Assembly: GCA_002633005.1 (NCBI GenBank)
Contig: NMRA01000990.1
Span: forward strand, 13,086-76,721
Source: Phoronis australis
Lineage: Eukaryota; Animalia; Phoronida
Direction of reading: 5' to 3'
Length of the DNA stretch: 63,636 nucleotides
Shown: positions 20,888 to 51,547 of the stretch, piece after piece
Position numbering within the stretch: position 1 is the first letter of the stretch
Layout: each line of letters begins with the position of its first letter
Position numbers and translations under genes: made by a program
Notes under the pieces: model-generated
Seen by the model: the letters and a program-made list of their open reading frames with translations, nothing else
Database searches by the model: none
Told to the model about the DNA's origin: nothing

Positions 20888-20926
20888 ATGCTGGTCAGAA
20901 TGGACACAATGATCCAAGTAGACATG
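20888..20926 (+). CDS. Candidate start exon of the ankyrin/protease gene (MLVRMDTMIQVDM)
   Basis: In-frame ATGs ending in ATG|gtaagt (consensus donor, phase 0), 385 bp upstream of the next ankyrin-like exon. Confidence 0.4.
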
Positions 20927-21311
20927 GTAAGTCCAACGATAAACCCTTTTTAGAGTAAGAAGACTGACAAACATGTCTGTCGTCTTTGAAGTACTAAGTA
21001 TCCACACGGGATATTCCTGAAGCTTTGATATAAATGTTTCACAATTTTATTCATTTATTTATTATTTAATACTTGTTATTATAATATTCACAATGAGGGT
21101 TACCCCATCAGTTCACATTGCTTTTCATGGGAAACCTTAAAAAGTGTAGTTCCACATGATGTTTCTTATCACGTCCCAGCAGCAACCCAGGCCCTCCCGG
21201 AATGTTGATATCATCTAAGGATCTCCATGCTTGTAAAAAGATGACTCCATAATGATAGTGCATGTATAGTGTACACTGTACGATTTGATATATATTTGTT
21301 ATTACTTTCAG

Positions 21312-21401
21312 GTTGAATCTGCTGTGCGCAGTGGTGATTACTCAACAGTAGTGAAATACGTAAACCGTGGTTGGGACGTCCACCAACCACTGGATGATGA
21401 C
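21312..21401 (+). CDS. Ankyrin/protease gene, N-cap ankyrin-like exon
   Basis: tttcag acceptor and gtaagt donor, 90 nt, phase 0/0. VESAVRSGDYSTVVKYVNRGWDVHQPLDDD fits A..G....V..L...G.DV. Confidence 0.65.
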
Positions 21402-24400
21402 GTAAGTATTGACGCATGAACACTCATGTGATCATGGCTGTCATGAGGTGCACCTTGAGAAATATGATTCTATGCAATCGTTGCCTTATCAGTTTTATCA
21501 GAAAGATATCTACTTCCTGGTTTTATGTTGAATCTGTTTTTAAATTAGTACTCTAAACTCTTAACCATTTCTTGTCATTGACGGATTTCATGTTTCGCAC
21601 CTTGTTGCTTACATGTACATGTACTCTTAAAGACTTTTAAATACGAACGAAAGTGTTATCTTTCCAAAGCATGTCTTTACTTTTGGAGAGCATCTGTGGT
21701 AATGTCACATCGTTATATGACTTAGCTTTGTTTACACTTACACACTAACAAAGGTACTGTAACTATAATATATTTGTCATTAATACAACTTAGGAGTTTG
21801 TTTAGGGGCGTGGATTTGGTGGAGGAGTTAGTAATAGTGAGGTGCAGTCATTTCTTTAAAACGAAATTTTAGGGTAGTTGCTCAAGTGTATTAAAAATAC
21901 CATTAAATCATTTCTTATTTGAATATGGATTTTTAAATTACTTTCGTGTGTATGCATGCGCCTTCAACTAAAACGTTATTTGATTTAGTCACGGTCACCT
22001 ACCTCTTTTGACTTGCTTTACTGAACCGCTGGTGTTGGGAAAGAAATCTGGCAGCACCGTTGCATCCCTTAAAGTTATACTAGGTGACCTTTGTCTGAAT
22101 GTACGACTACAAGAATACGACATGGAACGTGTTTTTCGAAAAACAACGACCAGAATTAATTAAGCTATTTTACCCTAAGATATTTTAGCGGCAAGTTCTC
22201 GGGAGTTTGTTATACACCCTGTACATGCAGGTGACCATCCAAGTTCTAATTTTGTGGTTCCGAGACTACCCCTGTTGTTTTTTAGCGTAGTAGCAGACTC
22301 GAAATTGAGGATCATTTGATTTTGTATGAGTTTTACAACTTACACGATGATAATTATATAACGAAGTATGACGTTTTAAACAGTAAGTTAGGTCGTTGTT
22401 ATTCAAGTAAATACTTTGCAGTACAATTTTCACTATAGTTTTTTTCACCGACACTTTCGTGACACTATTCACTCTCTTATGATATTACTTGTTATTGCTG
22501 ATTGTTTCTATTTTTGTTAATGACTGGGTCAAGTAGCAGTCGGTTAGTTCTGATTTTGAAATGTGTTATACAACTTTGTATCGAGGCTGATGTTCAAAAT
22601 GCTGACTTTTGTATTTTTGGTTGCATGTATCAAAAAGATCGTACGAGGGAAATTCTTAGTTACCACACAGTTTTGATATCTCCTCTCCTACTGTAGCACA
22701 TGTAAGTTAATATGTTGAATAAGGTAAACCATTTTCATTTCACAAGATGGTGCAAGGAAATTACATAAATTACCGCCCCGAAATCCAGTGTAGTTCATCA
22801 ACTGGTGAACATAGAAGTAATAAGTTATCGTAGAAGCAATGCAAAACGGCAATGATATATTCACATGTTGCTACGCTAGTTTTAAACATACAAGAAATTT
22901 GTACAGGTTCAAGTCAACAATTACCACACGTACAGGGTGTATTTTGGTGAGACAAATATAGTCAAATCATGACACAGTGATACGAAAAGCGATTATAAAG
23001 AAATTCCGTATAAAGACAATTTACTATGGAAAAAACTTGTAACTTCACTAAAGAGCGCTTGATTGACGCCATTAGACTAGTCATGAGAACCACTAATTAA
23101 AAACATATATTCATCAATATGACATTAAATCCTATAAATTTTACCTGTTTTTCGTCGACTGCATCCAGGGTCCGAAGCAAGGATCATTACAATCGATCTA
23201 CAGTATCATAGTGCAAACAATTAAAAACAGACTCGTTTTGGCAGATCCATAATTGCAAAAGACAGGCAGATTCTGAAAAGATTGTCTGAAATTTCCATAG
23301 GTTAACAATAAGGTTCAATTAAATCTCTTGACAGATTTCCTTTGTAATTTCACGGCGGTATACGACTGTAGGGGAATAATGTTATCCTATCGGTGAAAAT
23401 TGACCTTTAATAATGATGTCTATTACTAATTTATTACGTATGTTGGTAGGTTGTCACGTGTATGTATGTCTCGGTTATTGTGGATTCACGAGTTGTTCCA
23501 TTGTAAGACTTTGGAAGTAAGAAAGACATGCTGGAACGTAGACCCGGGTAGAGTTCACTAGCTGTGTCGCAGCTTGAACAATTTATCCAAATTCGTGTGT
23601 AATCATTTAAAATACATGTAGTGGGGTAGCCGCGCAAAGGTCTTAGCGAGGACCTAGCGTTGTAAAACTTTGCGCAGATCGAATGATACTCGAATTTGTT
23701 CTTTGTTGTAGTATTTACTCTGTTGAGAAGTTGCGGTGTTAATACTTTAATGCTGTTTTCTTCACAATGACATGTCGGACTAATTAAGATTTTTGATTGT
23801 ATTCGACTCTTTTATGACACCAATAATGGTTATTGCAAGCTAAATATGGCTGTCTGTTTAGCTCAAGCAAATGTCCTGCGTCATCCGCTTGTTTGGTAAA
23901 ATACTTTGAAACATGCATTAAAAGTGCGATACAAGTTTCAATAAGTTGTTTGGAATTTTATTTTTGTCCATGGTCTCGTCACTGTGGTTCAAATGACATC
24001 TCATGATCAACTATTAAGGTGAGATGTCTTTACAAATGTTTTGGGCAATATTTTCACCAATTGGGCACTGATTAAATTTGGACAGTTTGTAATTGGAGCC
24101 TCTAGAAAACGCAAGATCAACAGCCTTGAAATGCATGTACCTATTATGAGCCCGGGGTAGAACCAAGATTCAATGGTAGTTGGGTAGAGAGGGTCTGGGA
24201 TGTTTTCGAGATTTGGATAAAATGTGGCTGTCCCAGGACAATAGCTTGCAGTACCCCTACCAGGGGCGGATCCAGGATTTTCAGTGAATTACGGGGGTAG
24301 GGGGAACAAGGCAGAGTATTTGCCAGGATTTTACCCGTCAGACATTCGCAGAACCGAACCGCCAAGTGGAATCTGGAAGAGTTGACGAATGAATACATGA

Positions 24401-27400
24401 ATGAATTGAAGTGTGTGTGTGTGTGTGCAGAGTGTCCGACATTCCATAAGAGAATACATTATGCAAGAGGAGGTCTTGTGGAACCGTGTCAAACGTGCAT
24501 TAATTATCTAAAATTAAACCTAATTTTCGGTTTATCGCGTCTCGTGATTAATTTTGTAATGGTGAGTTCTGACGCTCTTTTCTCTCAAAACACCCAAGTG
24601 AAGTTGGTGACTTAATTGTTATTGAGAGTGAGGTTGTTGGACATTTTATTCCATGTCGATTTAAATGAATCGATTTTGAATTGTTGAAGGACTACAGTGA
24701 TTCTTTTTTTTTCTGATTGGAACTGAAACCCTCCTTCCAGCTTTCAAAATAGTAAGTACAGGGTAGAATTACGTTGAATAAAATGGGTGGTCAGCAGACA
24801 TATTTTTATTTCTAGTTAAACTATTTTTACGTGTATCATAGTCGATGCGATCACTTACAGTTGTATGTTTACATCAGTGTTTTCTAGTAAATGCGTGACA
24901 TGTGCCAAGGTCTCTTAAAATTTGACAGTTCATCTGGATGCTCATTATTGCTTTATTCATGAAGAAATCCAAGAAAAAAAAAACAAACTATGACTGGCAT
25001 TTCCCATGTGATGATTTAACAATAGCGTATGACTTTATTTTTTGTTGTTCGCTTTTGTTTATGAATGACCAATATCCCTGTATGTTGTGGAAACATTTGT
25101 GTCTGAAAAAAAATTATCATTGTTCTCCTGTTAAATTTGCGTAACTCACTTCCAGTAGTTGTGAATTGTTTCAAATTGCCGAAAAAACAACCTCTTGTTT
25201 GTTTTGTTGTTTGATCTGTATAATGTTTTTGTTTTGTTATTCTCGTTTTTGATGTCGTATTCGAACCAACAGGCCCGGAGCCAGCATTGCGCAGGGGGTG
25301 GTTCGATTTTTTCAACGGTGGACTTTGATATTTTGCAAACGTCGACACTCTGAAGTTTTGATTACGGCCCTCAATTGACCCAGCTTAATCAGGGGAAGGG
25401 AAATTTGTATACACAACGGTGGCTCTCAGTTTATGTTTTTGAGATGAGACGAACTTAGTTATACCAGAGATGAGGATGAAGAGACGGCTCGCTGGTTCCC
25501 TAAGTGCCGCAGGGAACCTTAGGGAACCAGCGAGGCCATGGCGGTTGCTTGCAAAGAACGGGGCTCAACTCGGATGTAAGGTGATCCAAAACGGTCCCCT
25601 CGTCCTTTTCTGCCAAATTTTCAAATCAGTGATTACACCTTCTAGGACAGAGATTCACTTAACGAAACTTTTTATCTAGTTATATTTTCCATGTTAACGT
25701 TATTGCATTTTAAACAATTTGGCATGGGAATATTGATGAATTTTCAACCACGATACATTCATCAAATCCATATCAAGGTCGCATTATTTCACAGCGTGAC
25801 TGAAAAGTTTAGTTCTGCTGTTCCTGAACCTCACTCACCGGAACCACGCTCACGGCGGTTCGAAATTATATGTAGTTATCAGGCTACCCGCTAGTCTTCA
25901 CATAATCAGTGAGCCCTATTCAGTCTTCTTAAATTTCAAACCGTTGGTCGCCGCAGCCTGGACCCGTGCCCCAGATGTTGCCCCTAATTAAGAATGAGTC
26001 GTTCGATTAAAAATCACTATTGACAGTGATTGAAACTGAGCTCAACAATGAAATCAATGTATTAAGAACTAATCAAGTTTTTGCACACCCTTTAAATGGT
26101 TACTAAATGGACACAGATACAATAATTTATTCATGTTTGTTACTACTCATTAGCAGACAACCAAAGTAACGAACGGTGTGGCACTGTGGTTTGAGGCCGG
26201 GACTAATTTTTGAGAGAGACCCAACCTCTAATCTTGGCTTAACTGACTGTCAATCAAGCATTGCACAAAGATGTCTGCAACTCGTCTGAGCTCGGTATTA
26301 CTAGTGAATATGTGCAAAGGTGTATATTAGAACCTGGATATATTGAAAAAGCGAATCCTGTGGCTGTACTTATTTTAGGAAAAAATAATAACTGTCGGGA
26401 GTTCTGGTTTTGGAATTCTGGACAATCGAAATAGTGAACTTTCGAAGGTGGCAAACCTTCGTAGTAGTGGACCTTTGGAGTAGCGAAACTTGTGGCATCT
26501 AACCTTGGTAGTGTCAGATCTACGTTTTCAGTAAGGAGTTAGGATTCGCGCGACTCCGAGACGCGTAGCGCCGAGCCGGAGCGAAGGGCGGTAGGGGGTT
26601 CCCCCTGTTGTGTATTTTTTTGTTTTTAGTAGCTGATTTTGTTTTCCTGGCAACATTTTTTTTTAATTTTTATGTTTGATCCTGTCCCCAGGGCAGGGTT
26701 TGAAACCCTGCATCCCCCGCGTATATCTGCCTCTGCTAGGAAATCTTTTCCATCAAATCAGTTGCTTCTATGAAGTCTGTGAGTCTTTGGACCATTGACT
26801 CTAATGTCCAAAGTTTTTTTGGGTTTAGACCTACTTTCACACAAAATGTGAACTCGCTCTACGGCCGTTTTTTCAGGGCAAGCAAACACGGTTATAGTTA
26901 AATTTTGGTGTTTGAGCAACGACGGAGGGCTGGCTATAGTTAACTTATCGTCGGCTTATATATACATTATATCTTTAGCAGATAGGTGGGAGCTGGACCT
27001 TTTCCGCGGACGGGGGGGTTGTTCGAATCCCTCGAACCCCCCCCCCCCGTTGGCTACGGGCCTGACCAGGGTTTGTGTCCGGCTGCGCACGAGCATTTTA
27101 ATTGAGTACGGGTATTTTCCCTCAGGATTTCGGAATTTGTACTGGCAACTGATGAGACAGCCGTGTTAGAGACGTTGTCGTCATTATTAGTGTTTTGCTG
27201 TGTGTTTTTGTGGACGTAAATGGGAGGGGAAACTTACATGGAATAAATCAAATTGCTACCACTTTTCACGATGTTGACTAACTCATCCAAAATTGACAAG
27301 TTTCAACTCATGAGACCAACTAATTTCATGACAAAATCAACTTAAACATTGAATATATAAGTGATAACATACGCTGCTTGGAGGATTGTTCAGAAAATAT

Positions 27401-30400
27401 AAGTTTCACCATAAACCACTTTTGGAATGACAATTGTGCAAATATTACACCTGGAAAAAGTAGTAACATTGTATTGATTTAGTTGAAATGTCGAACAGTG
27501 TGTACAGGTATAATACCAAAGGCGCTTGAAAACGTGAACGTCACTTAAATGTAAAATGCAAAAATTTAAAAATTTATCGGCCTTCCGTTAGTGTAACGAC
27601 AAAGTCAGCTATGGTGGAGCGGAGAATTTTTCTGATTTCCGTTTAATTGACAAAAACTTGAGAGAGAATTTAATCATATCCTGAAATGAATCTGAACATC
27701 CGTCCACAAATCCTTCCTCATTGCAGCTGCAGTGCTTTAACGTGTCCGAGGTTCCTCATATCTGCTCATCCATTAGACGGCAGGGGGCCGNAAACAGAAC
27801 AGTAGCAACGTGCAGCGCGAGGAAATATTGCCCCGGATCGCGGCGTTCCCGTTTTTTTGTTTTTAGTCCATCGGTAGATTTTCCGAACAGAAGGTCCACA
27901 TACCCGGCTCAGCAACTTTGGTCCTGCGTTGCACATACAATCGCACCTTGCCCAATACCCCGAGACAACATGTTGGGCCCCCCTTATGGTATCCTTGATC
28001 CGCTTCTGAACCCCGAATCTGAGATTCACGATGACCCTGTTTGCCATTATCTCCTGGGATTTTGTAGTATTTTTTGTGAAATACTCTTACTGTATTTAAT
28101 TAATATTAAACAACATTACTATTTATGTCCACCTCTAGTCAGAATCTTAGGTCCCGGGATATAGCTGTTTGTTTGCTATTGATGAATGCCACATACATGT
28201 ACAAGTGTATCGATAAAGCTCGTGTGCACGTGAGAACTGCCAGTCAGCCAAGCTCTGCGTTCTAAAACCGCGATTCGTCACTTCGTCGTTTCAAGCAACT
28301 GAACTGCATACACGTATAGGCCTTAGATCTGTGTCGAAATGGTGAACTGCAGTATTGATTCGTTGACTGGAGAGAGATATTGAACTGAAAAAGGTTAATT
28401 TAGGTAAAGTTTTTTGTCATGAATGTGTTCTATTACAAATTGTGTGCTTGTACCATAATTTGCTTGCTTGTGTTCAGTGGAAGCGTGCTACTAGGCTACA
28501 TTAATTTGTGTGATCCAGCTGACCAATTGATAGTTTTGCAGTCTGAGATAGGCATATTAAGAATCATTACCGTAGCCAAGGGTGTTCGACAGGTGCCAAG
28601 GCAACCCCATCGCACCTGTCGTTCCAAAATCACATTAAGTTGACAAAAAAATTGGACAGGAAGTAATTCTGTAGGAATTAGGAAGTGTTTTGGAAAATAT
28701 GAAGTCTTGCGTACGTTGAATTTCCAATGTATTCTTTTCGTGAAAAATATTGGTACTTTTGTTAACGGAGAACTGTTAGCTAGCAAAACAACTGACTCAC
28801 TGAATCAGTCCAGCTATGTCGATGCTTATTCCTAAAAAGTGCATCGCGATAAGTTGAAAATTGGTGGTTCTCTCTTTTGTTAATACATGTCTTTCAGGTG
28901 TTGTTGCAGAACGAGTTTTGATATTCAAAAGGTCTACTCTATTCTGGTGTAAGTTTTATTGGAGAAAATTCATGCCGCATTTTATATCGGAATGGCATTA
29001 TACACTGCCTTGTTGAACAAGATATCCTTCGACTACTGGTACAAATTGAAGATGAAATGATTGATTTATTTTTAATGTTATTAATTTCTGAGACATTATT
29101 AAACGGTGATTTGAAACACAGTTAGAAGGTTCAAGGCTTTGCATCTACTGCTGTTCTTCTAAGACGCTCTTGAAGTTCACTCTCATCACTTCCCTTAGTT
29201 GACAAATCTGCAAAAAAATTTCAAACTTGAAGCCTAATTTTACTAAATCTGTCTGTGTTTGGTAAATTTCTAGACGAACCTCTAACACGTTTTCTCAAAA
29301 TATAAAATTAACTCACGGAAGTAAGAATTTGTTTTTTTGTTAAATATTAGCTTCACATTCAGCTTGAAATAAATGATAAATATAAAATTTGACAATGATA
29401 TTATTTCCAGTATTAATAATGCAATTGCTTTTTGGTCTAAATTGCTGCTTATAGTACCCAGAGATTTTATTACTTTATGCTTTGTTAATATCAAAGTTGG
29501 TGCGTCTTTTTTCGAAGTATCCGTTCTTTGCCTGATTCTTCTTAGAAAGGTTTTATCAGTCGTGTCTACGACATGCTTGGATTGAAGATGGCCATTATTG
29601 CATTTGTTTAAAAAATCTTTAAATCGTACTTGTATAAGGAAAATTGTGATCTAGTCTAGTGGGCTAAATTAATGTTAGATCTCGTACACGTACTCTAATA
29701 CTTTTCTGTTTAAACGTTGAGGCTTATGATTATTAATATGCATAACTTCAAATTAGAGACACATTTTGAAAGGACTTTTTGATCTTGCGTCTAGTATAGT
29801 CAGTAATGTGTTGGAGTTTCAACTGTTATAGTTAATTGATTCTATATGGGTGATACAAAACGTGGTTGTCAAAACGTTTCCACATTGTAGTCGATTTGAT
29901 TCATTCTTCAAGAAAACTTCTGGACTATAGCGAAGTATTTACAGTATTAAAAGTAAAAGATCGGTTTGATTATCAGCAGATTCTACGTGGACTTCCAATA
30001 TCATCTTATATCATCAGATATTTGAAGATAAAGGGTGCACTTGACCTTCTTTCAAAACTAAGCGGAATCTGCTTAAAATGTGACTGGTGAAAATGTAAAC
30101 TAGAAAATAGTTAATAATTGCATTACATATGTTCAAGATGCTCAAATGAAATTTTTTCAGTGAGACTCACTGATTAAGAAATTTATTACAATTGTTTGCT
30201 CAAATTGGCGTAGTCCATTGTGTTGTTTGTCTATTTGCCATGACATCACCGTAAATGATGCACGTATGTTTGGGTAGTTGCAACGTTGACGGCGTAGGTC
30301 TTCTATGAGATTGTTTCTATATCAGTTTGGCTCTTCTAAGAAAATATTAGTGTGCAATACTGTTTGTTGCTTAACTAGACTTTCCTCACTTCAACAAAAA

Positions 30401-33400
30401 TTTAAAAGTATCATTCCTCAGTTTCGCCAATACAAAATATCATTATTACATTTTAAGTAGATTAAATTATAAACATACAATAAACTTGCACCTATACTTG
30501 CAGCGATGGTCATATTTTGAGTCAGTCGTGTGCGATTAGTAATAATAGCTTTGGTTGCTTTGTTGAATCTTGTGATTGACCTTGATTGATTAAATATACA
30601 TGCATGTGTACAACTCACACCCGTACACGTGTATACATACATTATGTGCTTAACAGTACAGGGTACAGCAATAAATATTATGACCTTGTAATCAAGTAAT
30701 AAGGGAAAGTTTAATACTCTGGTTTGTTTGCTTTGGGGGCTTGAGCAAAAGCAATGTTTTTGCTTGTTTTTATTATATCAGTTGTTCAATATTTTTAGGA
30801 AATGACATTACCCAAGAAATATTTATGTTCTTAGACAAGAGTGTACATTTTTGTGATGGTAGAAGCAAAAATAATAATAACTCGCCTTACATTTGACTTT
30901 TTCGACCTTTGAAACCAAAATTCTAGCCCGTCATCACAAATTGCAGCTTGCAAAAATTGCCCACAAATTCATGCACCAAATTGATTTGAGGTCACCGAAA
31001 AAGTGCTTACATTATGCTTTTACCTGCGATGTACAGGTAAATATTCCCAAATTTTAGGCCGCAAGATTTTGTTCTTAATGTTTGATGAAATTCTTTCTCT
31101 CTACAAGCATTGAAAGCCCTGGATGCGCGTGTTGCAATGCAAATCAAATTCGTACAGCCTGACGTTCCCGTAAGGGCTTTGTACATCTATCGTACTATCG
31201 CATATTCTTTCGCGAGTTAAAAATACTTGTCGCAAGCCTCGGTACAAGTTGAATCAGTGCACTCTAACAGTCACGTGCTTCCCAGTAACCAAGTATAGAA
31301 CGTAAACTTGAACATATTCTTTGAAAAAATACTCACGACACTCTTGTTATTGATCTGCAGTGTGACTGTCATCAAAGTCCTTAAACAAGAAACGAAGATA
31401 TACATGTATAGTGTAACAATGAGTGCAAAATTCCTCCTTTTGTTTGCTCTTCAATTTTTGTGATTCACACGATTGAAAATTATCTTGTCGAAAAACAAAA
31501 CCGCTTAAGTTATACCTAGCCGAATGTCGAATTATGCATTCAATGTTATCGGTTTGGGACAGAAATTGTATTACTTTTGGTTCAATTTCTTAAGATGGCA
31601 TCAACAAAGGGATTGATGGTCGGGAAATTTTCAGTTCATTTATCACAACAAACGTTATCTGGCTTATACTGTTTACGTTTTCAATTATTAGTTTTCCATT
31701 GAATAACATGCTTCAAAATAATACCTATTCCTTGCGGCTTTCCATAGTCGGGTAATTCGAGTTTGTTCCCTTAGCACGGAATACAGTGTACGTGTCATGT
31801 AATTATGCACAGAATTGGTAGACTCATAACAACACGTGACCCCAGCATGCTTGTCGAAGGATTACTTCGCCTTCGGAAGCAGCAAACAATAGTGGGGTTT
31901 TGCTATTAAACTTTCGTAAAAGACGGGTTCTTTTGGAAATGGAATTTGTTGTTAAGTAAAATGAGATTATGACCCACTGTAGACTGCGTTAGTGACAAAT
32001 TCAAACCACGCAGTCTCTTACAGAATACCACATCTCTGTTGACAACTGCAAACATAATACACTGCTACTCGAAACGTTGATACAGTTACCGCATTTTAAA
32101 CGCATCCTGCAGTTCTGAAATTCAATTTCAGTGAGATAAATAACGATTGGACGCTTTCCAGAGCTGTTGGCGTTTTATTGAAGTTCGTCAAAAGTTAAGG
32201 GTTGCGATAAGTGGAGCAGTGGGTGCTTGTTCCGAAAAAAATCAAAGATATGGAATAGGCGCAAACTTGAGTGTGGTCGTTGTTCAAATGTTTTTTGTGC
32301 TACGGAAACCTCCAATTCGTGAATGTCTGGGTATCGTTAACACCCTCAGTTTTTTAGACACCCTCAATATTTCAAATTCTCTCTTGGTTACGTTTCACTC
32401 GGAACAGTATTCTTTCCAATCGAGTTTTACACCAGTAAACGTCAGTGACGTTCTTATAGTCGGATGACTACCCGGGGAGCAAAAAAATCGCTTGCTGTAC
32501 GCGAATACTGCGAATAATGATCCTCTGCTGGGACCTCGACCGTGCGCGCAAATAACTTGGTCGAACAGTGTTGCAATTCGATACGACCTGGGATATTTTA
32601 ATTGGATAATCAGGACATTTTGAAAAATTGATATGTTTTTCCACCACAACGCTTGAAACGTTGATCGTTTCAGAGGTATTGGAAACATCACTGTTTCGTA
32701 CCGTTTTGTAACTTGTTCTGCCGATGTGCAGAGCTTTCTTCGGCACATCCGAAAATTTGCGAAGTCAGAAATACTTGTCGACGAAACGAGTCAAAGATCG
32801 AATCTGGACTATTTCATGTTCACGAGATACAATTCCGTTCACAACATGACAAGTCATCTATAGGATTGTTCTCTGTTAGTGTTCTTGGAACTTGCTTTGG
32901 CAACAACTAACTAATGGTCGGACCCACATGAGTTGTTTCATACGTCCCAGGTATCAGTCGGGAGAAGTGTAGAGACACAAACTCAGCACGCATTATGCTT
33001 GAAATTCCAGGTCGCACAGTTTGACTTGACACGAGAGGCCAAAACCTGAGCTTTCATTTGAGTTTGGGTGTGTAGAGTAGTATTATTGCATCATTCTGAC
33101 GTGTGGAGACTGAATTCAATAATAGCAGTTAGTTAACGGTAACGATGTAATTTTATTGTTAAAATAGAAACATTCTTGTCATGGTTGCCCTGCCGTATTA
33201 AAAAGATTAACGGGCATTCAGTTGATGAAAGCGGATTATGAAATTAATCACTACGAGTGAATATCACCTTAATGCAGGTCACCAAAGAACAGTCGTGTCT
33301 GGGAATTGCACTTGTTGTGTAAGCGAAAGCGACCTACATGTAGGCCTAATTTTGTTATTTGATCTCGATGCTCTGTTCTAAACGTCACTAATATACGGCG

Positions 33401-35279: not shown

Positions 35280-35375
35280 GACGACACAGCACTACACTAT
35301 GCAGCAGGGCTGGGACATACAGAGATGGCGCGTGTTTTGTGTGAAGCAGGCGCTAACGTCAACAAGCAAGGCGTG
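35280..35375 (+). CDS. Ankyrin-repeat exon
   Basis: ctgcag acceptor and gtaat donor; DDTALHYAAGLGHTEMARVLCEAGANVNKQGV. Confidence 0.9.
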
Positions 35376-35941
35376 GTAATAGAAACTACTTGAGACGATT
35401 TTATAATTAAGACAATGTTATCTTTATTACAAAGCTGTAGACTACCTGAAATTTAACTAAACATGTTGTGTGTAAATACACTTTTTATTTCTCAGGATTT
35501 CGACATGTATTTTTAATCTGTACCCGGTACATGCATCTTAAGAAACAGTGAGGTTTGAATTGTGTCAACAATATATTTGGCGACTTAACGTTGATATTTT
35601 TCTATTCTTAATGATAATCATCCATTCAACATTACAACTTTATATTAAACAGGAAGCCGTTAAACCGGTGTATAAACACAACATGGAGGGGTCACTGTGA
35701 AGTTATGGAGGCGCTCAGTAATTTCTGACAGTAGACGTCTACACCATGTTCTGTTCTTACTTCAACGTTTCAAAATCACCTGTAAAACTTGAGTGTTGAA
35801 ATCATTACAAGTATTGTAGCGTCTTAGAGGGGTCAGTAATGTTTCACTTATGTCACCTTACAAGTTCACTTTGCCCCGTGTATGTTAGTGTGCTCTAAAC
35901 GTTGATCGTCCATTCACACATCTCCATTATATATTACATAG

Positions 35942-36040
35942 GAGGGCTTGACACCGCTGCACTGTGCAGCATGGTGTGGTCATAAAGAGATAGTGAAGTG
36001 TCTTGTGGAACACAACGCTGCAGTGGATGTCCGTGATGAG
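35942..36040 (+). CDS. Ankyrin-repeat exon, tandem copy 1
   Basis: 99 nt, phase 0/0; EGLTPLHCAAWCGHKEIVKCLVEHNAAVDVRDE. Confidence 0.92.
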
Positions 36041-36598
36041 GTAATTAATGACACACAGGTTGTTTGGTTGAACTAGTTGTTTACACAAGAGATGATTAAA
36101 ACTATCTAGTAAAAAATTTTGTTGATATTTTTCACAATTTTATGTCTTTAAACAATGTCAAAATAAATGTCGTCTGCTTTCCAACAGCGAACTGCCAAAG
36201 CTTTACCTGAACATTCCAGTTGATCCATTATTGTTGTTTTATTTACCTATATATATTCTACATTTCGTCAAACAATAGTTTCCTTCAGACGATCTGGATC
36301 GCCTCATTTAGTTTCAGATTTATTTTCTACGTTATTTTGATCGTCCAACACTTTACAGCGCACAATTACTTGCTGTGTGTTACCGGCCTGTAACGAGACA
36401 GGGAACACTGAACACGCTCTGTTTTTTTGTTCTAAAACTCAACATTTCCCTGTTGAAATCATTACAAGTATTGTAGCGTCTTAGAGGGGTCAGTAATGTT
36501 TCATTTATGTCACCTTACAAGTTCACTTTGCCCCGTGTATGTTAATTAGCTCTAAACGTTGATTGTCCATTCACACATCTCCATTATATATTACATAG

Positions 36599-36697
36599 GT
36601 GGGCTGGACACCGCTGCACTGTGCAGCAGGGTGTGGTCATACACAGATAGTGAAGTGTCTTGTGGAACACAACGCTACACTGGATGTCCGTGATGAG
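36599..36697 (+). CDS. Ankyrin-repeat exon, tandem copy 2
   Basis: 99 nt, phase 0/0; VGWTPLHCAAGCGHTQIVKCLVEHNATLDVRDE. Confidence 0.92.
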
Positions 36698-37255: not shown

Positions 37256-37354
37256 AGGGGCGTGACACCGCTGCACTGTGCAGCACTGAAGGGTCATACA
37301 CAGATAGTGAAGTGTCTTGTGGAACACAACGCTACAGTGGATGTCCGTACTCAG
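37256..37354 (+). CDS. Ankyrin-repeat exon, tandem copy 3
   Basis: 99 nt, phase 0/0; RGVTPLHCAALKGHTQIVKCLVEHNATVDVRTQ. Confidence 0.92.
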
Positions 37355-37886
37355 GTAATTAATGACACACAGGTTGATGAAACACAATACGTGATAAGGT
37401 TGAATTATTGGGTGTTTTAATTAAATAATCACAAATTGTAATTTTGTTTGTAAACGTTGAATTCATGGCACGTGTAGTGACGCGCACGTGACGTGACGTG
37501 CTCGTGACATTAAGTTATTAGAAACAGTTTTCACTTCACCTGGAGTTGTACATTGAGCAGTTGTTCTTTACTTGCATTTCCATAGCACTCACTAAATGAT
37601 CGTGGCTCTGTTGTAATATACATGTAAAACATCAAATTGTGATATTTAAAATCATCTTTTCAGTCGCGTGACTACAACAGATCAGCATTTAAGAAATTGC
37701 GCTCATTTTTGTCTGAGTTTAAATGTCAGTTGTAGTCGTGCTCTGTTGAGTCACCCACTTCATACAGTAAGTATGCAACTGATGGCGAAGTTCTGAAAGG
37801 CATTAAGCGTGACTCCCTGTTGATGCACCCACTTTGCTATGTATGATGCTGACTAGCATTCTATCATTTTTGTTCGTTTACTGTAG

Positions 37887-37988
37887 GATGGAGACACACC
37901 CTTACATCTTGCTTCCCAGAAAGGACAGGCAGCGGTCGTGGATCTGCTGGTCCATAAAGGCAGCTGCGACGTAACTGTCGTAAACAAG
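37887..37988 (+). CDS. Ankyrin-repeat exon
   Basis: ctgtag acceptor and gtatct donor; DGDTPLHLASQKGQAAVVDLLVHKGSCDVTVVNK. Confidence 0.9.
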
Positions 37989-40900: not shown

Positions 40901-41403
40901 CATTTTTAACACGGTAAATAGCCTTCCTTGAAGCATGAAGACACTTTGGATGCGTACCTAACAATTTCCATGAATAATGTATTTGTATCGGACGATGTTG
41001 GTCACTGCTGCTGGGTGGAGGTTGTTATTATGCAAGCTGACAGTAAACAACAGAAGTCTAAAGCTACTTCCAACCGTTTTCCACGGATGTTCAGGAATGC
41101 ACGGTATCTACGTGTATACATGTACGTTAGAGTTCAAAAATTGGTGAAAGACAATGTTTGAACAAAAATTAGAAGCATTTTTACCACGTGGTTGCCATGG
41201 TGACAACAAAGAGGGTTCAGAGTACCGTGACCTAAAGCTAGACGATTCCGCACCCCAGTTGGTTTATGCTGCCTTTTGATGTCATCTCAGTGGACTACAG
41301 TGAAAGATGTCCTGGACAAGTTGTCAGCAAGTTCATACCTCAGTTTGCTAATCCCATGGAGTACACCTCTCGAGTGGAACCCCATCTAACACGTGTATAA
41401 TGT

Positions 41404-41674
41404 GCAGATCTTAAAAGGCAAAAGAAAATTAAGGAGTGAAACTCAATACTCGGTGGCTGAAGACTTCAGCAAGAAGGTTCGTATCGCTAGATCAAAGTTA
41501 TGGCAGTTCTCAAGAGACAATAATTTTATAGAAGCCACAATAAAATTCGATAAGCTTTATAACAACAGGAAAATGTACCTGTATGACAATCATATAGACA
41601 AAGTTGTCTGCAACGAGGATAGATACATCTTCAGAGATAGTACGGATACAAATGAAGAGGACGACAGTCAATAG
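41404..41674 (+). pseudogene. C-terminal fragment of LINE ORF1
   Basis: KLRSETQYSVAEDFSKKVRIARSKL...ATIKFDKLY matches the L1-type ORF1 C-terminal pattern (S(I/V)xEDFS..R..R.L ... DKL); stop is 6 nt before ORF2. Confidence 0.7.
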
Positions 41675-41680
41675 CAAACA

Positions 41681-44600
41681 ATGACAAGAGAAATGAAAAT
41701 AGGATCATGGAACATAGGGGGGCTAGAAAGTAAGCTACGACAAAACAAAGGAGAAATTAAAAAAATAATTAGAAACTACGACCTCATAGGATTCATTGAA
41801 TCACACGCAAGAGCAGAGCATGAATTTGGCGATCTCTTAGAAAATTATTCCACGTTCACATCAGTACGAAACATACATAACGGCAAAGTATCTGGTGGAG
41901 TGACAGTAATGGTAAAGAACAATTTAGGAACCAAAATAACTCGCATCTGTGAGAATTTGGAAGACAGAGTATATTTGCATCTGAAAGATTTATTTGCTGG
42001 CTCAGACAAGCCAGATGTAATAATAGGTTTTATTTATCTCCCTCCCGAAGGGTCAGCATACTACAGCCACGACATTTCTGACTGCGGTGTTGATCGTCTC
42101 GAGGATGACTTTACCTGCTTAAAGAGTAATGGGAAATTTAACCACTCACGGGTTATTTTGACAGGTGACTTTAACTCAAGGACAGCTACACTCAGAGACT
42201 ACATCCCAGATGACGATATCACGCATATCAATGTCCTTGCCAATAGCGATTGTTGTTATGTTCAAAATAATTTTGAAAAACCAAGAAACAACCAAGATGC
42301 GAAATCTAATTACTTTGGCAAAGAACTTGCCAAATTTTGTGCAGTATATGGTACGCACATAGTTAACGGTAGATACCCCTCAGACAGAGAAGGAAACTAT
42401 TCGTTCGTCTCCACTCGAGGATGCAGCACTATTGACTATGTTATTGCCGAGGCATCTCTGTTCGAATATATTAATGACTTTGAAGTATTAAACTACGACC
42501 AGTCAGACCATTTCCCTATCATGTGTACTCTACGTTATCTAGAACATACGGAAGCTGATACAGACGGATCGAACACTAGTGTCAGAACAACCCCATTGCA
42601 CCGACTGAAGTGGCAGCCACACAAATCTTCAAGTTTTAAGGATAGACTGGGCAGCGTTGACACCACCGAGAAATTATCCCAAATATCTTCAGCCATCGAT
42701 ATGGATATTAACAAAGCAGTTAATTTAATAAATGAATTATTCCACGCTTGCGGCGCTGACATGAAAATAAGCAATAAACCCGCAGTGAACAGGCAGCAGC
42801 CAAGGTGGTTCGACAACGTTTGCGAGCAAAAGAAAATAGAAAAACATAATTTATTGAAACTTTTCAGATCCACAAAGTGTGTGGATACACTACGTAATTA
42901 TATTGATACGAAAAGTCAATTTAAGGAAACCTGTCGTGAAAAAAAGAAGAATTATAACGAACAAATGGAAAAGAAATTATGTGATTCAGTGAGAGATCCA
43001 AGAATATTCTGGGCAAACGTGAAGTCAATCATAAATCCGAACAATATTCAACAAGCGGATATTTCGTCGAAGGAATGGTATAACTATTTTGAAAAACTCT
43101 TGAACACTGAGCCTGTACGGGAAAACAGAGAATTCCTTAATAATTTGCTGGACGAAATGCGAGAGCACGACGAAAGCTGCAATGACTGTGCCAACACACC
43201 TGGTGATGAAATCCTGGTACAACTTAATAAAGAAATTGACATGTCCGAAATCAATCAGGAAATAAATAAACTTAAAAGCAACAAAACCCCTGGAGAAGAC
43301 GGTATTCCAAATGAACTCTTCAAAGCACTGACTGGTGACATCCTTGAAGTGTTATGCAAACTATTCAACAAGGTACTGGCGACAGGAAAATTCCCGGAGA
43401 ACTGGAGAAAGAGTATAATCGTTCCAATTTACAAGAAAGGAGACAAAAATAACCCAAATAATTACAGGGGAATTTCTTTAATTGATAGCATAAGCAAGCT
43501 ATTTACATCAATATTAAACAGAAGGCTGATTGAGTGGTCGGATGCAATGCAATGTATCCCTGAGGAACAAGCCGGATTTAGGGCGGGTTATTCGACCGTG
43601 GATAACATTTTTGTTCTACAAGCTTTGGCCCACATAAATTTATCAAAAAGAGGTGGAAAAATGTACTGTGCCTTTGTGGACTTTAGCAAGGCGTTTGACA
43701 GCCTAGAAACTACACGTCTGTTTTATTGTTTGTTAAAAAATAATCTCCACGGGAAAGTGTTCAATCTCCTGAGGAATATTTATGCTGAAGTGAAATCGTG
43801 CGTGAGAATACAGAGTCAAATCACACCCTATTTTGATTGTACGAGAGGTGTGAAACAAGGGTGTATACTGAGTCCTTGGTTATTCTCTGTTTTTGTTAGC
43901 GGACTGGTGTCAGAGGTCAAAGAAAATGGAGGACGAGGTATCAAGTGTGATGATTGTGAATTAAGTTCGTTATTGTTTGCGGACGATTTGGTGCTTGTGG
44001 CGGACACAGTGCCTGGTCTCCAGAGGAAATTAAATGTATTGCACAACTACTGTGTGGATTGGAGTCTTTGTGTTAATCTTGATAAGACAAATATTGTTGT
44101 CTTCAAGCGAGGTGGGACTCTGTCGGCACAGGAACGGTGGTTCTACAATAAGAAATCGGTAGAAACGAAATCTTATTACAAGTACCTTGGTGTGACATTT
44201 TCTTGCAGATTAAAATGGAATGAAAATTGTAGAATATCAGCTTTACAAGCTAGAAAAGCAATGAACATGTTAAAAGCATGTTTAACCAAAGTGAATTGTA
44301 AATCCCCGCATGTATGTTTTAAATTGTTTGATAGTATGGTAGCTCCTATATTGTTATATGGTGCTGAGATATGGGGTACAGTATATTCGAAAGACATAGA
44401 AAGTGTTCACAATGATTTCTGTAAATGGGTTGCTGGTGTCCCAAAGAAAACAAGTAACGTTATGGCCAGAGGAGAATGCGGCAGGCATTTATTATCTGTG
44501 AAATACTTGTGCAGACCAATAATCTACTGGACCAAAATTCTACAGATGAATAACCCCAGATACCCAAAGAAAAGTTACAGGATGCTGCGGGAAGACTGTG

Positions 44601-45166
44601 AAAAAGGACGAGCAAATTGGGCCAGTGCAGTTAAAGATATTTTGTTCAGATACGGGTTTGGGGAGGTATGGATAAGTGGACCGGGTAACTTTGATTTATT
44701 TATATCAGAATTTAAGCAAAGATTGTTGGATTGTGCTGCCCAAGAATGGAGGACATCAGTGCAGAGCTCTAGCAAGTGCTCATTTTACTCTATTATCAAA
44801 ACAGATTTATCTTGTGAAGAATATCTTTACAGTTTACCACCAACTCTACGTAGAATTTTAGCCAAATTCAGGTGCTCTGGACACCAACTGAAAATAGAAA
44901 CTGGTAGGCACCATGACATTCCAAAGGAAGATAGACTTTGCGAAATTTGCAACCGTTCAGAAATTGAAGACGAAATACACTTATTACTTAACTGCCCCGT
45001 ATTTAACGACATTAGAAAAAAATTTTTACCAGAAATATCCCGACAGCATACAGACATCGAAAACGTCAAATACTTATTCAAAACAAACTCTGGAAATCTT
45101 TTGAAAAGACTATCCTTATTTATATTAAAGGCTTATGGTATTAGACAGGAAACTCTAACATTGTAA
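41681..45166 (+). CDS. LINE ORF2: APE endonuclease + reverse transcriptase + C-terminal CCHC-like zinc motif (1161 aa)
   Basis: APE motifs SWNIGGL, TGDFN, TIDY, SDHFP. RT motifs PGEDGIP, YRGISL, QAGFR, DFSKAFD, GVKQGCILSP, FADD, YKYLG. C-terminal CEIC...EDEIHLLLNC. Confidence 0.97.
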   Translation: MTREMKIGSWNIGGLESKLRQNKGEIKKIIRNYDLIGFIESHARAEHEFGDLLENYSTFTSVRNIHNGKVSGGVTVMVKNNLGTKITRICENLEDRVYLHLKDLFAGSDKPDVIIGFIYLPPEGSAYYSHDISDCGVDRLEDDFTCLKSNGKFNHSRVILTGDFNSRTATLRDYIPDDDITHINVLANSDCCYVQNNFEKPRNNQDAKSNYFGKELAKFCAVYGTHIVNGRYPSDREGNYSFVSTRGCSTIDYVIAEASLFEYINDFEVLNYDQSDHFPIMCTLRYLEHTEADTDGSNTSVRTTPLHRLKWQPHKSSSFKDRLGSVDTTEKLSQISSAIDMDINKAVNLINELFHACGADMKISNKPAVNRQQPRWFDNVCEQKKIEKHNLLKLFRSTKCVDTLRNYIDTKSQFKETCREKKKNYNEQMEKKLCDSVRDPRIFWANVKSIINPNNIQQADISSKEWYNYFEKLLNTEPVRENREFLNNLLDEMREHDESCNDCANTPGDEILVQLNKEIDMSEINQEINKLKSNKTPGEDGIPNELFKALTGDILEVLCKLFNKVLATGKFPENWRKSIIVPIYKKGDKNNPNNYRGISLIDSISKLFTSILNRRLIEWSDAMQCIPEEQAGFRAGYSTVDNIFVLQALAHINLSKRGGKMYCAFVDFSKAFDSLETTRLFYCLLKNNLHGKVFNLLRNIYAEVKSCVRIQSQITPYFDCTRGVKQGCILSPWLFSVFVSGLVSEVKENGGRGIKCDDCELSSLLFADDLVLVADTVPGLQRKLNVLHNYCVDWSLCVNLDKTNIVVFKRGGTLSAQERWFYNKKSVETKSYYKYLGVTFSCRLKWNENCRISALQARKAMNMLKACLTKVNCKSPHVCFKLFDSMVAPILLYGAEIWGTVYSKDIESVHNDFCKWVAGVPKKTSNVMARGECGRHLLSVKYLCRPIIYWTKILQMNNPRYPKKSYRMLREDCEKGRANWASAVKDILFRYGFGEVWISGPGNFDLFISEFKQRLLDCAAQEWRTSVQSSSKCSFYSIIKTDLSCEEYLYSLPPTLRRILAKFRCSGHQLKIETGRHHDIPKEDRLCEICNRSEIEDEIHLLLNCPVFNDIRKKFLPEISRQHTDIENVKYLFKTNSGNLLKRLSLFILKAYGIRQETLTL

Positions 45167-45290
45167 CGTGTAAATATGTATATATGTATTGAATACCCGG
45201 ACATGAAATAGCCACCTATACCAAATGTTGTAATGTAATATGTACAAATGAGCTTAGCTCCAAGTGCAATAAACAACCTCTCTCTCTCTC

Positions 45291-45325
<35 letters not shown>

Positions 45326-45635
45326 AATGTTCTTTGAAATGAGACACTTCTTCCAACATTTAAAGAGGCAACGCAGACGCAGGTGTAAAACAACTGACAC
45401 TGAGTGTCACTATTCGACCACACCAGGTCAAGACCTACACCCAGAACAATTATAACTCTTGAGAATAGAAGAGGCACACGTTGAAACTTGGTTAAAATTT
45501 TGACCCTGAATAAATACAGACGGAAACATGCCGGAATCCAAGAAACACGAGATCAAAAAAAATGCTCATTATGCGTGTTTTCTGAAAAATTATATGTACT
45601 TTTTAATTCTTTACCTCTATTTTGTTAATTTTCAG

Positions 45636-45734
45636 AAAGGCGAAACAGTTTATGATGTTTGTGGAAGATATTGTAGCGTGTTTTTTGACAAGACCGCCGC
45701 CGAAAATATTAAAACCTTAAAGGGGTTCCTTGAG
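45636..45734 (+). CDS. Ankyrin/protease gene, C-cap ankyrin-like exon
   Basis: tttcag acceptor and gtacag donor, 99 nt, phase 0/0; KGETVYDVCGRYCSVFFDKTAAENIKTLKGFLE. Confidence 0.75.
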
Positions 45735-46004
45735 GTACAGTATAACTTGTCATTTTTGTCTTGAGAATTAGGTGTGTGTTGTTAACCATTGAATACTGTT
45801 TAAATAATCATTATTTACCTGATGAAAACGATAGTGGTCAAGTGACCATGTTTGTTAATAATTTTTTAATAATACCATGTTTTTTATTTACATTTTATCC
45901 ATTGCTAACTCAGGAATTACATAGATGTTCAAAGCAGAGAGTAGCATCATCAGTTATAAAATAAATTAGTTAATGCGGTTGTGTCGTTTTTGACTTGGGT
46001 ATAG

Positions 46005-46233
46005 ATTCAAATGAAGCAAAGACAGGAAAACCAACGTGCGAGTTCTGCTGAGGGTGCTGAAGCCAAAGACAGGTCCAGTGCTGACCCGCACTTTAGCCTT
46101 GGAAGATCTCTTGCTCATTACTTCGAGTCCTCCGGGGCAACAGTGCCCAAAGGGGATGTAGATATAAATATACAAGCACACCAAGGAGACAAAAATGAAC
46201 TAGAAATTCTCGATGTTGACGTCAGACCATCAG
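46005..46233 (+). CDS. Ankyrin/protease gene, linker exon
   Basis: atag|ATT acceptor and CAG|gtatgt donor; open in phase 0 (IQMKQRQENQRASS...DVDVRPS), ends in phase 1. Confidence 0.7.
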
Positions 46234-47596
46234 GTATGTGAAGTATAATTGTAAATACTGGCTTTAAACTCTTGACCTGCAATCGTAGAACATAACTTTA
46301 TGGTGATAACATACCGCTTTTAATTCGTAACTACGTTTTTTGCGAAAACATTTTCCTTTAGTAGCAGAACAATGATTAACTGAGAGAAAATTTCAATCAT
46401 CTTCAAATTTGTCTTTTTATTGGCCACATGGGAATGTAAGATTATTTATGAATTGTTATCGATGTGATTCATACACATAGTTTCGCCGGTGCTATTCACC
46501 TATTGCTCTAAATGAGATGTTGATTCCATACATTCAGTTAGTGGGTATTGAATAAGTTGATAAATCTGTGCTACGACTTACATCTAGCGGGTTATTGTGT
46601 CACTGGTAAACACTGCTACATGAATCAATTTTGCTTGTTCAGCGGCTGCATTCGATTATGGTATTGCACACTGTTCTAGGGCTAAACATTCAGCTGTATA
46701 AAACTGAGTGTCTGTCGAGTTCAGATACATGGTGTTGTAGTGACTGTAGCTTCATTGTATATATCACAACAGTGGCGGATCTGGGATATCAACATGTTGT
46801 CTGGGGCAACTGCGCAAAGCACGATTGCACGCGCGCAACCAGGGGTGCGTGGGGTCAAACTTTCGGGTAAGCGGAGGTTCTGCTAAGAATCAATTTGGAG
46901 GACTATAAAACGGGGAACCCTCAACACATCGGAATGTTGTTTCAGACCCAGGTTAATTACCACGTTATTTAATGAACTCAATATTTCGTCACGCTCTTGC
47001 TGTTTTATTTTTTCTGCGTCAGCCAAGGGGGCGGGCCCCCTGCCCCTTTCCCCCTCTAAATCCGCCTATGCAGAATGCCCATTGGTCAAACAATGTTTGT
47101 GAGATGCACGTAACGTGCTGTGACTCGGTGCTTACCAATGCCTTCACGTAGTTCAGGTTTGATAAATAAATCCACCAACGACATGCCAAATACATGTAAA
47201 GCTCGTTTTGTCTAATGCATTATATTATTTCTCACTCTGTTCTCAATCACCTAATCACTTACAACAGGTTAGATAAATGGAGCTCAATGTAATCTGTAAG
47301 AACTACCGCCACGTCTATTTATTTGCATCTTACACATTCCCAGTCAATCTCAATACACCCGGAGTTTCCCAGCATTGCAAAAGAACCGCATTTGTTTTTA
47401 AATCTAGGCCACAGTGGTTTCAAAATCGTGGCTGCTCCACTGTAAAATTGTCGTCGGCGTACAAAAAACAGGCTAAATTACGCTACTCAAAGTTTAGTTC
47501 CCTGCCACTAAAACAGGATCCAACTTGCTCACCACGTATTTTTTACAGTTTATTCGTCAAGATTTTGGATGTCTGTTTATGGCAAAGCGTTTTTAA

Positions 47597-47939
47597 ATTG
47601 GTTTCAATTACATCATCTCCTCGCCACTTCCTGACTCGCTTTTGTCTCACATGGTAAAGCAAGCCCACTTGGGATACTGGAAAAGGGTATTTGACAATTC
47701 TTTTCTTTCAGACTACTTTCCTATACAAAGTCCCAGAAAAGAGCCAACCCAGTGTAGTTTCGGTCCGGCGTTTGATTGGAACAAAGAGACGATGTCGGCG
47801 CATTTCCCCACATCTTTGTCAACAGCCTTTTCATCAGTAGCTCTGATTGTTGGACAAACCGGCACAGGTTCAGGTTTCCGTGTTGGCCCTGACTACGTCA
47901 TGACCAATAAGCACGTTGCTGAACAACTGGGCGATGATC
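47597..47939 (+). CDS. FAM111-like trypsin-fold serine protease, catalytic-His segment (5' exon boundary unresolved)
   Basis: SSVALIVGQTGTGSGFRVGPDYVMTNKHV matches the Trypsin_2/FAM111 GxGFxVGxxYxxTxxHV motif; donor C|gtaagt at 47940. An in-frame TAA lies at 47594. Confidence 0.7.
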
Positions 47940-51218: not shown

Positions 51219-51461
51219 NNNNNNNNNNNNNNNNNNNNNNNNNNNNNNNNNNNNNNNNNNNNNNNNNNNNNNNNNNNNNNNNNNNNNNNNNNNNNNNNNN
51301 NNNNNNNNNNNNNNNNNNNNNNNNNNNNNNNNNNNNNNNNNNNNNNNNNNNNNNNNNNNNNNNNNNNNNNNNNNNNNNNNNNNNNNNNNNNNNNNNNNNN
51401 NNNNNNNNNNNNNNNNNNNNNNNNNNNNNNNNNNNNNNNNNNNNNNNNNNNNNNNNNNNNN
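51219..51461. other. Assembly gap (243 N)
   Basis: Run of N. Confidence 1.
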
Positions 51462-51547
51462 NCAGATTTAGAAGCAGGTGTTAGTCATGAAATTAGCTGC
51501 TCCCGCCACGGTGGCCGGTGTCGTGGCGTCGCCGGGAAGTCTGATCC

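Follow-up and report, generated by a model that had tools for sequence, protein, structure and literature searches.

How invertebrates, which lack antibodies, discriminate many pathogens inside the cell is an open question. The initial annotation of a 63,636-nucleotide stretch of the phoronid Phoronis australis (contig NMRA01000990.1; hereafter the window) proposed, from order, strand and proximity, that an ankyrin array is fused to a FAM111-like serine protease in a candidate immune sensor-effector. The locus raises three questions: whether the exons form one gene, what kind of protease that gene encodes, and what a variable ankyrin array might do on such an enzyme.

Exon structure and splicing

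The gene model and its surroundings comprise the following features, in window positions.

20888..20926, + strand: putative first coding exon of 13 codons with an ATG; the frame is open, a GT donor follows and read depth is about 2; the least certain part of the model
21312..21401, + strand: N-cap exon, 30 codons, phase 0-0, from the gene model; no Pfam match
35280..35375, + strand: ankyrin repeat 1, 32 codons; Pfam Ank, E 4.5e-9
35942..36040, + strand: ankyrin repeat 2, a phase 0 exon of 99 bases that opens the series of three tandem copies; Pfam Ank, E 6.2e-11
36599..36697, + strand: ankyrin repeat 3, tandem copy; Pfam Ank, E 9.9e-11
37256..37354, + strand: ankyrin repeat 4, tandem copy; Pfam Ank, E 1.1e-9
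37887..37988, + strand: ankyrin repeat 5, 34 codons; Pfam Ank, E 1.7e-9
41394..45330, + strand (that of the gene): LINE retrotransposon in intron 7 that contributes nothing to the protein; its 1163-residue ORF matches endonuclease and reverse transcriptase
45636..45734, + strand: C-cap exon, 33 codons, joined to 46005; no Pfam match
46005..46233, + strand: linker exon, phase 0 in and phase 1 out; RNA-read joints on both sides
47712..47939, + strand: first protease exon, phase 1 at both ends, holding the predicted catalytic His; read joint from 46233; weak Trypsin_2, MarP and DegP matches
51219..51463, no strand: run of N marking a gap in the assembly; the 3′ half of the protease gene is missing on the near side, and the 5′ half of a transporter gene on the far side

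Ten plus-strand exons with AG..GT ends and compatible phases yield a single stop-free frame of 393 residues, running from an N-cap through five ankyrin repeats, a C-cap and a linker to the start of a trypsin-fold domain. The annotated exon series is thus present in full and in one open frame. Profile searches agree for the ankyrin part, where the five repeat exons score 36.5 to 42.4 bits against a Pfam Ank threshold of 21.1, while the N-cap and C-cap exons matched no Pfam family and were assigned from position and resemblance.

Because the run search listed none on record as RNA, three raw read runs were chosen by species label. Their joints are GT..AG, and first mates lie without exception on the minus strand, which fits plus-strand RNA in most stranded libraries. 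The C-cap donor at 45734 is joined to 46005 in 16, 9 and 14 reads and one contig, and the linker donor at 46233 to 47712 in 3, 11 and 12 reads (26 in total over the three runs) and one contig. The initial annotation had left this second junction unresolved, looking for it within 47549-47939; the splice does enter that region, but its acceptor is 47712 rather than 47549. Nine acceptors lead into the His motif in an open phase-1 frame, and 47549 is not one of them; a longer ORF from 47597 is ruled out because reads splice at 47712. Linker and protease exon share one transcript, and the fusion of ankyrin array and protease is real.

Upstream, joints from repeat 1 to repeat 2 occur in all three runs with variant junction letters, and the N-cap region is joined to the next exon by one contig and 12 reads, again with different letters at the joint. 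No joint from the exon at 20888-20926 appears among the 15 of 60 joints listed, and none of the joints seen belongs to a read or contig spanning the whole ankyrin-to-protease stretch. The intron at 35376-35941 is itself covered by reads, at a depth of 24 to 260.

The longest step in the model leads from repeat 5 to the C-cap, a distance of 7.6 kb that includes the LINE, an element with a (CT)n tail and with direct repeats of 10 bases at 41394 and 45321. Among the joints listed, a single contig makes this link, from a run whose RNA origin is a guess, and both this and the intervening retrotransposon would suit a division into two genes, one with the ankyrin exons and one with the C-cap, linker and protease exons. 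The contig in question, which has a loose end before the C-cap, nevertheless matches the end of repeat 5 with 2 mismatches in 30 bases (28/30, next best place 18/30) and goes on to cross the joint from C-cap to linker; since exon phases also agree, we consider two separate genes hardly credible.

Gene family and the missing 3′ end

The reads are not simply transcripts of the assembled copy. Most are 90 to 99% alike to the window, and at position 35985 683 of the 687 reads of one run differ from it, so the reads may derive from other alleles or paralogs. One ankyrin exon is covered by 12 contigs, and loose ends at 46018, 46063 and 47748 gather 66 to 100 reads, with 10 of 30 bases at 47748 differing from the window exon. 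On the C-cap and linker exons, a subset of reads departs from the window by a single base. The locus is a member of a transcribed multigene family, with paralogous transcripts among the reads.

Loose ends also run on past 47939 (28 and 98 reads, 2 contigs) into a further exon outside the window, of which the reads supply only 30 more bases. A 20-base motif from this next exon had no match in the window at 3 mismatches (best, 6), and none of the 139 plus-strand ORFs downstream matched a trypsin family. The missing 3′ exons probably belong in the gap at 51219-51463, or else the gap marks a mis-join. Nesting of the protease gene within the transporter gene was considered and set aside: the 125 ORFs upstream gave no Pfam match at E 0.001, although short exons would escape such a search.

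These observations could also describe a real family whose copy in the window is a 3′-truncated or decaying duplicate, the spliced reads coming from intact paralogs. Such a copy would lack the next exon, differ from the reads at fixed positions and tolerate an intact LINE in intron 7, all of which is seen here. It would less readily retain 393 codons free of stops and frameshifts, canonical splice sites throughout, and C-cap and linker exons that some reads match to within one base. The truncation may, moreover, be one of assembly, as the gene across the gap has likewise lost the half that faces it. Decay of this copy is accordingly an improbable reading.

The protease domain and its relatives

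Exon 47712-47939 contains the GSGF...TNKH motif; of the protease, the window covers no more than the part with the His. Against Trypsin_2 (PF13365) the exon scores 16.4 bits (E 0.015; cut-off 27.6), with just the first 20 of 144 profile positions in the window. Its nearest sequence matches, all weak, are MarP, HtrA/DegP and the staphylococcal Spl proteases; fragment scores fall far under family cut-offs (19.2 versus 250 bits, and 12.9 versus 416 for HtrA/DegP). Wider searches gave little more. None of 26 candidate homologs was retained at E 0.01 or at E 10; 1.84 billion representatives returned 8 matches, seven of them repeat artefacts and one a Trypsin_2 protein; and the ESM Atlas gave unnamed clusters with trypsin-type leads at 0.85 to 0.89. 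A metagenome contig scan found one locus, HtrA-like by sequence, a genome contig scan three loci, and PADLOC one weak trypsin-like match (E 0.013). A structure model of this single exon has a mean pLDDT of 52 and a pTM of 0.12, too low to be of use. With this fragment as query, there was no match to Nal1 families at E up to 1 or to NAL1 PDB chains at E up to 10. A Pfam Ntox25 match (E 2e-4, under its cut-off) was taken as chance.

Could the domain be catalytically dead, leaving a binding adaptor or a decoy, for example for pathogen protease inhibitors? The Asp and Ser are absent from the stretch in the window, and known proteases were matched weakly. Yet the predicted catalytic His and the motif preceding it are intact (identity to an HtrA-type protein is 40% across 42 residues), and His is unchanged in every read difference listed (268 further rows exist). 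A dead domain is thus distinctly improbable, and we infer that the missing exons complete the catalytic triad.

Secreted trypsins (S1A) have a signal peptide and, on either side of the His motif, paired Cys residues. The protein modeled here differs in both respects: it has no hydrophobic leader (top 19-residue hydropathy in the first 45 residues, 0.53, with the first exon uncertain) and is free of Cys from the GSGF motif to the residues that follow His. Because both features are missing, the sequence points to a cytoplasmic location. The bacterial S1 subfamilies HtrA/DegP, MarP and Spl, although the best if weak matches and likewise devoid of a Cys pair beside His, consist of exported or membrane-bound enzymes that lack an ankyrin array. 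HtrA/DegP proteins are further marked by a C-terminal PDZ domain, a region that for this protein lies outside the window.

The FAM111 label of the initial annotation gained no support from these comparisons. Homolog searches returned no FAM111-named protein, and no FAM111 chain was among the 17 PDB matches at E up to 10 even though structure 8S9K exists, a weak test with a 75-residue query. According to two papers (PMC9798293, PMC10920703), FAM111A/B are intracellular, with a regulatory N-terminal part followed by a Trypsin_2-type domain at the C-terminus, and have an antiviral role in humans; FAM111A-like forms of soft coral and lancelet are described there as lacking the pair of ubiquitin-like (UBL) domains of vertebrate members, and "ankyrin" has 0 occurrences in the former, a FAM111 review. 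The protein studied here would resemble FAM111A/B in a predicted intracellular trypsin-fold domain that follows an N-terminal module. It differs in having an ankyrin array, no sequence match and, within the window, an incomplete triad, and its ankyrin repeats and 76-residue linker gave no match to a UBL pair before the protease.

Ankyrin array variation and proposed function

Repeats 2 to 4 are tandem copies of a 657-base unit. Repeat 3 matches repeat 2 at 92 of 99 bases, and repeat 4 matches repeats 2 and 3 at 85 and 86 of 99, respectively. The three are 86 to 93% identical as DNA and 73 to 79% as protein, and their changes are clustered and may reflect conversion tracts. For the remaining two repeats, identity is about 40%. 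For reference, high-internal-conservation repeat sensors are defined by repeats 80 to 100% identical with few hypervariable positions. The three tandem exons show 34 pairwise changes, 0.5 of them synonymous. With binding-face positions that we take from DARPin numbering, and that were picked after the differences were seen, 10 of 18 face columns vary, versus 6 of 81 elsewhere in the exon and 10 of 147 in flanking intron, an approximately 8-fold excess over intron (Fisher p 1.6e-6 by column and 0.0013 by codon, from three non-independent sequences). Framework codons vary about as expected at the intron rate (5 of 27 versus 5.1), with no sign of purifying selection on the framework. In addition, 12 translated junctions are all in frame and differ in hairpin residues. 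By these comparisons, the three recently duplicated one-repeat exons appear to differ mainly at the predicted ankyrin binding face, and the variable array proposed by the initial annotation is borne out, its variation concentrated at the putative ligand-binding surface.

Our leading interpretation, held with middling confidence, is that this transcribed family places an ankyrin array on a predicted intracellular trypsin-fold protease and likely combines immune sensing and effector action in a single chain. In this scheme, a foreign or altered protein would dock on the variable concave face of the array and thereby activate the protease or direct it to a target. Specificity would be generated through exon duplication and sequence exchange. 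FAM111A has its active site ordered by dimerisation, which runs through the helix preceding the first strand, and by analogy activation might proceed via ligand-driven dimerisation, or via release of auto-inhibition; the cleaved target might be a pathogen protein or a host death effector, both steps being conjecture. A more specific and tentative possibility is a natural DARPin-like receptor repertoire wired to a trypsin-fold protease, in which one-repeat exons are duplicated and exchanged and ligand triggers cleavage without an NLR switch or adaptor.

We infer the immune role, and an active ankyrin-targeted protease could instead act on endogenous substrates, in development, reproduction or self/non-self marking between individuals, its variation arising from repeat turnover or another conflict. 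Ankyrin arrays are general binding modules whose exposed positions vary in any family, and framework codons changing at about the neutral rate would suit this alternative. Relaxed constraint alone is insufficient, however, to explain face columns that vary so far above the intron while synonymous sites hardly differ, and the many paralogous transcripts also count against this alternative. A non-immune role is therefore unlikely, if the most serious competitor to an immune sensor-effector.

No description of an ankyrin array with a trypsin-fold protease was found in the literature searched, nor a relative with this architecture in protein databases; an ankyrin query gave a trypsin domain on record in 0 of 22 scored candidates (of 107). 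Related designs exist. HET-Q2-like S8 and CHAT proteases beside fungal gasdermins (PMC8851545) and proteases associated with bacterial gasdermins (bGSDM; 10.1101/2021.06.07.447441) are fused to tandem-repeat modules (TPR, ANK, WD40, LRR). These systems likewise combine repeat module and protease on one chain, with coupling of recognition to cleavage proposed, but their proteases are fungal or bacterial and subtilisin-like or caspase-like, whereas here the fold is that of trypsin and no gasdermin or other substrate gene was detected in the window (mainly plus-strand ORFs). Fungal NLRs have near-identical repeats with few hypervariable positions, and brown algal candidate receptors carry one repeat per exon, subject to duplication and shuffling. 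Both are interpreted as candidate immune receptors and resemble the present locus in near-identical repeats or one-repeat exons; in the cases consulted their repeats are WD40, LRR or TPR, and they possess an NTPase switch domain, in contrast to the 393 residues here, where, as in the 139 downstream ORFs, no NACHT or NB-ARC was found, the C-terminus lying outside the window.

Overall, we regard the locus as a variant of the known repeat-sensor-plus-protease design. If the proposed function is correct, a fast-varying binding surface and a protease on one chain would constitute a recognition system that is compact and open to experimental test, a design described so far mostly from fungi and bacteria would reach into animals and the trypsin fold, and the family would bear on the origin of intracellular Trypsin_2 proteases such as FAM111.

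Gene model and splicing

Ten + strand exons, all with canonical ends, join into a single open frame of 393 residues, bearing out the initial annotation's proposal that phase-compatible exons encode an N-cap, an ankyrin array, a C-cap and a linker fused to a protease. Five of these exons carry one ankyrin repeat each. The surrounding DNA is eukaryotic: its introns are spliceosomal, its G+C content is 39% and CpG stands at 0.85 of the expected level. A LINE and a gene for an amino acid transporter also lie in it, and together these traits suggest an invertebrate animal.

Exons of the candidate ankyrin-protease gene
20888-20926, +, candidate first exon; open frame
21312-21401, +, N-cap; open frame
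35280-35375, +, ankyrin 1; Pfam ankyrin match above cut-off
35942-36040, +, ankyrin 2, tandem copy; Pfam match above cut-off
36599-36697, +, ankyrin 3, tandem copy; Pfam match above cut-off
37256-37354, +, ankyrin 4, tandem copy; Pfam match above cut-off
37887-37988, +, ankyrin 5; Pfam match above cut-off
45636-45734, +, C-cap; open frame, RNA joint to linker
46005-46233, +, linker; RNA joints on both sides
47712-47939, +, protease exon (GSGF...TNKH); RNA joint, weak trypsin-type matches

Reads sampled from three raw RNA runs of a single study (about 18 to 19% of each run) were aligned to 45340-50500 alongside a contig set from a second study, tentatively taken to be RNA. Across the three runs, the C-cap to linker joint (45734>46005) is spanned by 16, 9 and 14 reads, and the joint that the initial annotation had left open, from the linker at 46233 to the protease region, by 3, 11 and 12; one contig supports each. 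Both joints are GT..AG throughout, with first mates on the - strand. The protease exon is entered at 47712, which gives an open frame, and not at the acceptor first proposed, 47549, which does not. One contig crosses the C-cap exon, backward into sequence matching the end of ankyrin 5 (28/30 bases) and forward into the linker; this contig carries the ankyrin 5-to-C-cap joint, which has no raw-read support among the loose ends listed. The chain from ankyrin 5 to the protease is thus pieced together from overlapping joints rather than read from one molecule. Within 19000-36400, one contig and 12 reads connect the N-cap region to ankyrin 1 with different letters at the joint, and no joint of the first exon appeared among the best 15 of 60 entries. 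We are highly confident that the fusion is real and spliced; that the ankyrin and protease exons are two genes is very improbable.

Reads on the gene's strand (depth 24 to 260) and a 577-base contig cover the intron after ankyrin 1 (35376-35941). If it were kept in the mRNA, the frame would end after a single repeat; the reads may reflect a short form, a paralog ending there or unspliced RNA. The ankyrin 5-to-C-cap intron contains a same-strand LINE (41394-45330, +). Its ORF of 1163 residues, covering endonuclease and RT, is intact, and it has a (CT)n tail and repeats of 10 bases that resemble target-site duplications; it is probably a recent insertion and could cut transcripts short. At 2277-2586, a ~27-base tandem repeat can be read in an open frame as recurring units of nine residues, with no Pfam match.

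Variation in the ankyrin array

Each of repeats 2 to 4 occupies a phase 0 exon of 99 bases within a 657-base tandem unit, and the two full introns of these units differ at 27/558 bases. The three exons show 34 pairwise changes (0.5 synonymous). By DARPin-design numbering we take codons 33, 1, 3, 11, 12 and 31 to be the ankyrin binding face, a set applied after the differences had been seen. The variability claimed initially for the array is concentrated there: 10/18 columns vary in these codons, versus 6/81 elsewhere and 10/147 in a shared intron piece (Fisher p 1.6e-6 by column; by codon 5/6 vary, p 0.0013; three related sequences in each case). A DARPin alignment shows variation at codons 3, 11, 12 and 31; in these four codons, 7/12 columns vary among the three exons. 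Passages of two DARPin papers locate the randomised positions on the concave surface (PMC8229355, PMC8683736). Framework codons are about as variable as the intron would predict (5/27 versus 5.1 expected), so framework conservation is not demonstrated, and the clustered changes may be conversion tracts. The frame was kept in 12/12 junction rows, with differing hairpin residues; these were exon-to-exon rows chosen among those listed, leaving out intron-start, duplicate and repeat-element rows, and residues beyond each joint were translated from the window rather than from reads. Reads (5, 12 and 65) also show a repeat-to-repeat joint that this genomic copy lacks, from 36038 back to 35940, which suggests that alleles or paralogs differ in the order or number of their repeats.

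The protease domain and its missing half

The protease exon matches Trypsin_2 (E 0.015, first 20/144 profile positions), the models for MarP at E 5e-4 and for DegP at E 0.04 and, among PDB entries, MarP-type and Spl chains with a best E of 0.024. All these matches are weak, yet they converge on one His motif. Profile searches upheld the ankyrin part of the annotated architecture, above cut-off in 5 exons, and left the Trypsin_2 part weak. The FAM111 label stays unproven: no search returned a FAM111 sequence, and the query, a 75-residue fragment, makes this weak evidence either way. The UBL pair is absent, as it is from coral and lancelet FAM111A-like forms in the relevant passages of PMC9798293; FAM111 membership is not established.

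Beyond 47939 the transcripts (28 and 98 reads, plus 2 contigs) pass into a further exon, in which the frame stays open for ten more residues. This exon has no match in the window, and 0/139 downstream + strand ORFs (at least 33 residues) matched any trypsin family. An N gap lies at 51219-51463, and past it are later exons of the transporter gene (58628-61899, +; Pfam Aa_trans, profile positions 207-296 of 410), whose 5' half did not turn up elsewhere in the window (0/125 upstream ORFs tested match Pfam). Because both genes lack their gap-facing half, the simplest reading is that the protease gene's 3' half is absent through missing or mis-joined sequence at the gap. The protease is half-seen, its His part present and its catalytic Asp and Ser predicted to lie beyond; a dead domain seems quite unlikely. 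Direct repeats near the gap (49407-49787/50570-50947, 98% identity; 59054-60201/60203-61358, 96%) could be genuine duplications or could have arisen in assembly.

A diversifying family and its possible role

The gene is one member of a diversifying family. In one run, loose read ends at 46018 (94 reads), 46063 (66) and 47748 (100) point to paralogs; the last differs from the window exon at 10/30 bases. Summed over similar repeats, coverage of one ankyrin exon comes to twelve contigs and, in a single run, as many as 687 reads. A few reads on the C-cap and linker exons show a single-base difference. Alleles and close paralogs are indistinguishable in these data. Most reads are 90 to 99% alike to the window and several differences are fixed; at 35985, 683/687 reads in one run differ. 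These mismatches count against the main reading for this copy, and that it is a truncated copy is unlikely, if a shade less so than a dead protease.

The modelled protein has no hydrophobic leader and no Cys pair at the His, and is therefore probably cytoplasmic. The array would bind a changing ligand. Binding might switch on the predicted protease through dimerisation, as in FAM111A, where N-terminal-helix dimerisation orders the oxyanion hole (passages of PMC10920703); alternatively it might relieve auto-inhibition, or the array might simply carry the protease to a bound target. All three modes are conjecture. We put the chances of a one-chain immune sensor-effector at about even, and regard a targeting protease of non-immune function as a distinctly weaker contender.

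The predicted protein would work like the repeat-fused proteases encoded next to gasdermins of fungi and bacteria (PMC8851545; 10.1101/2021.06.07.447441), and repeat variation in fungal NLRs (PMC13449251) and brown algal exon-per-repeat receptors (PMC3341825) resembles that seen here. Passages of PMC8195603 describe conflict systems with trypsin-like effector domains and ankyrins as proposed sensors, but the ankyrin and trypsin-like pairing is not among them. None of 22 ankyrin hits carries a trypsin domain, and the paper searches, which reached few subscription papers, listed no description of an animal ankyrin plus trypsin-fold family; supplementary domain tables or database annotations may hold one. 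A repeat sensor and a protease on one chain is a known design, from which this predicted protein would differ in pairing a trypsin fold with ankyrin, and an immune role for the family is plausible.
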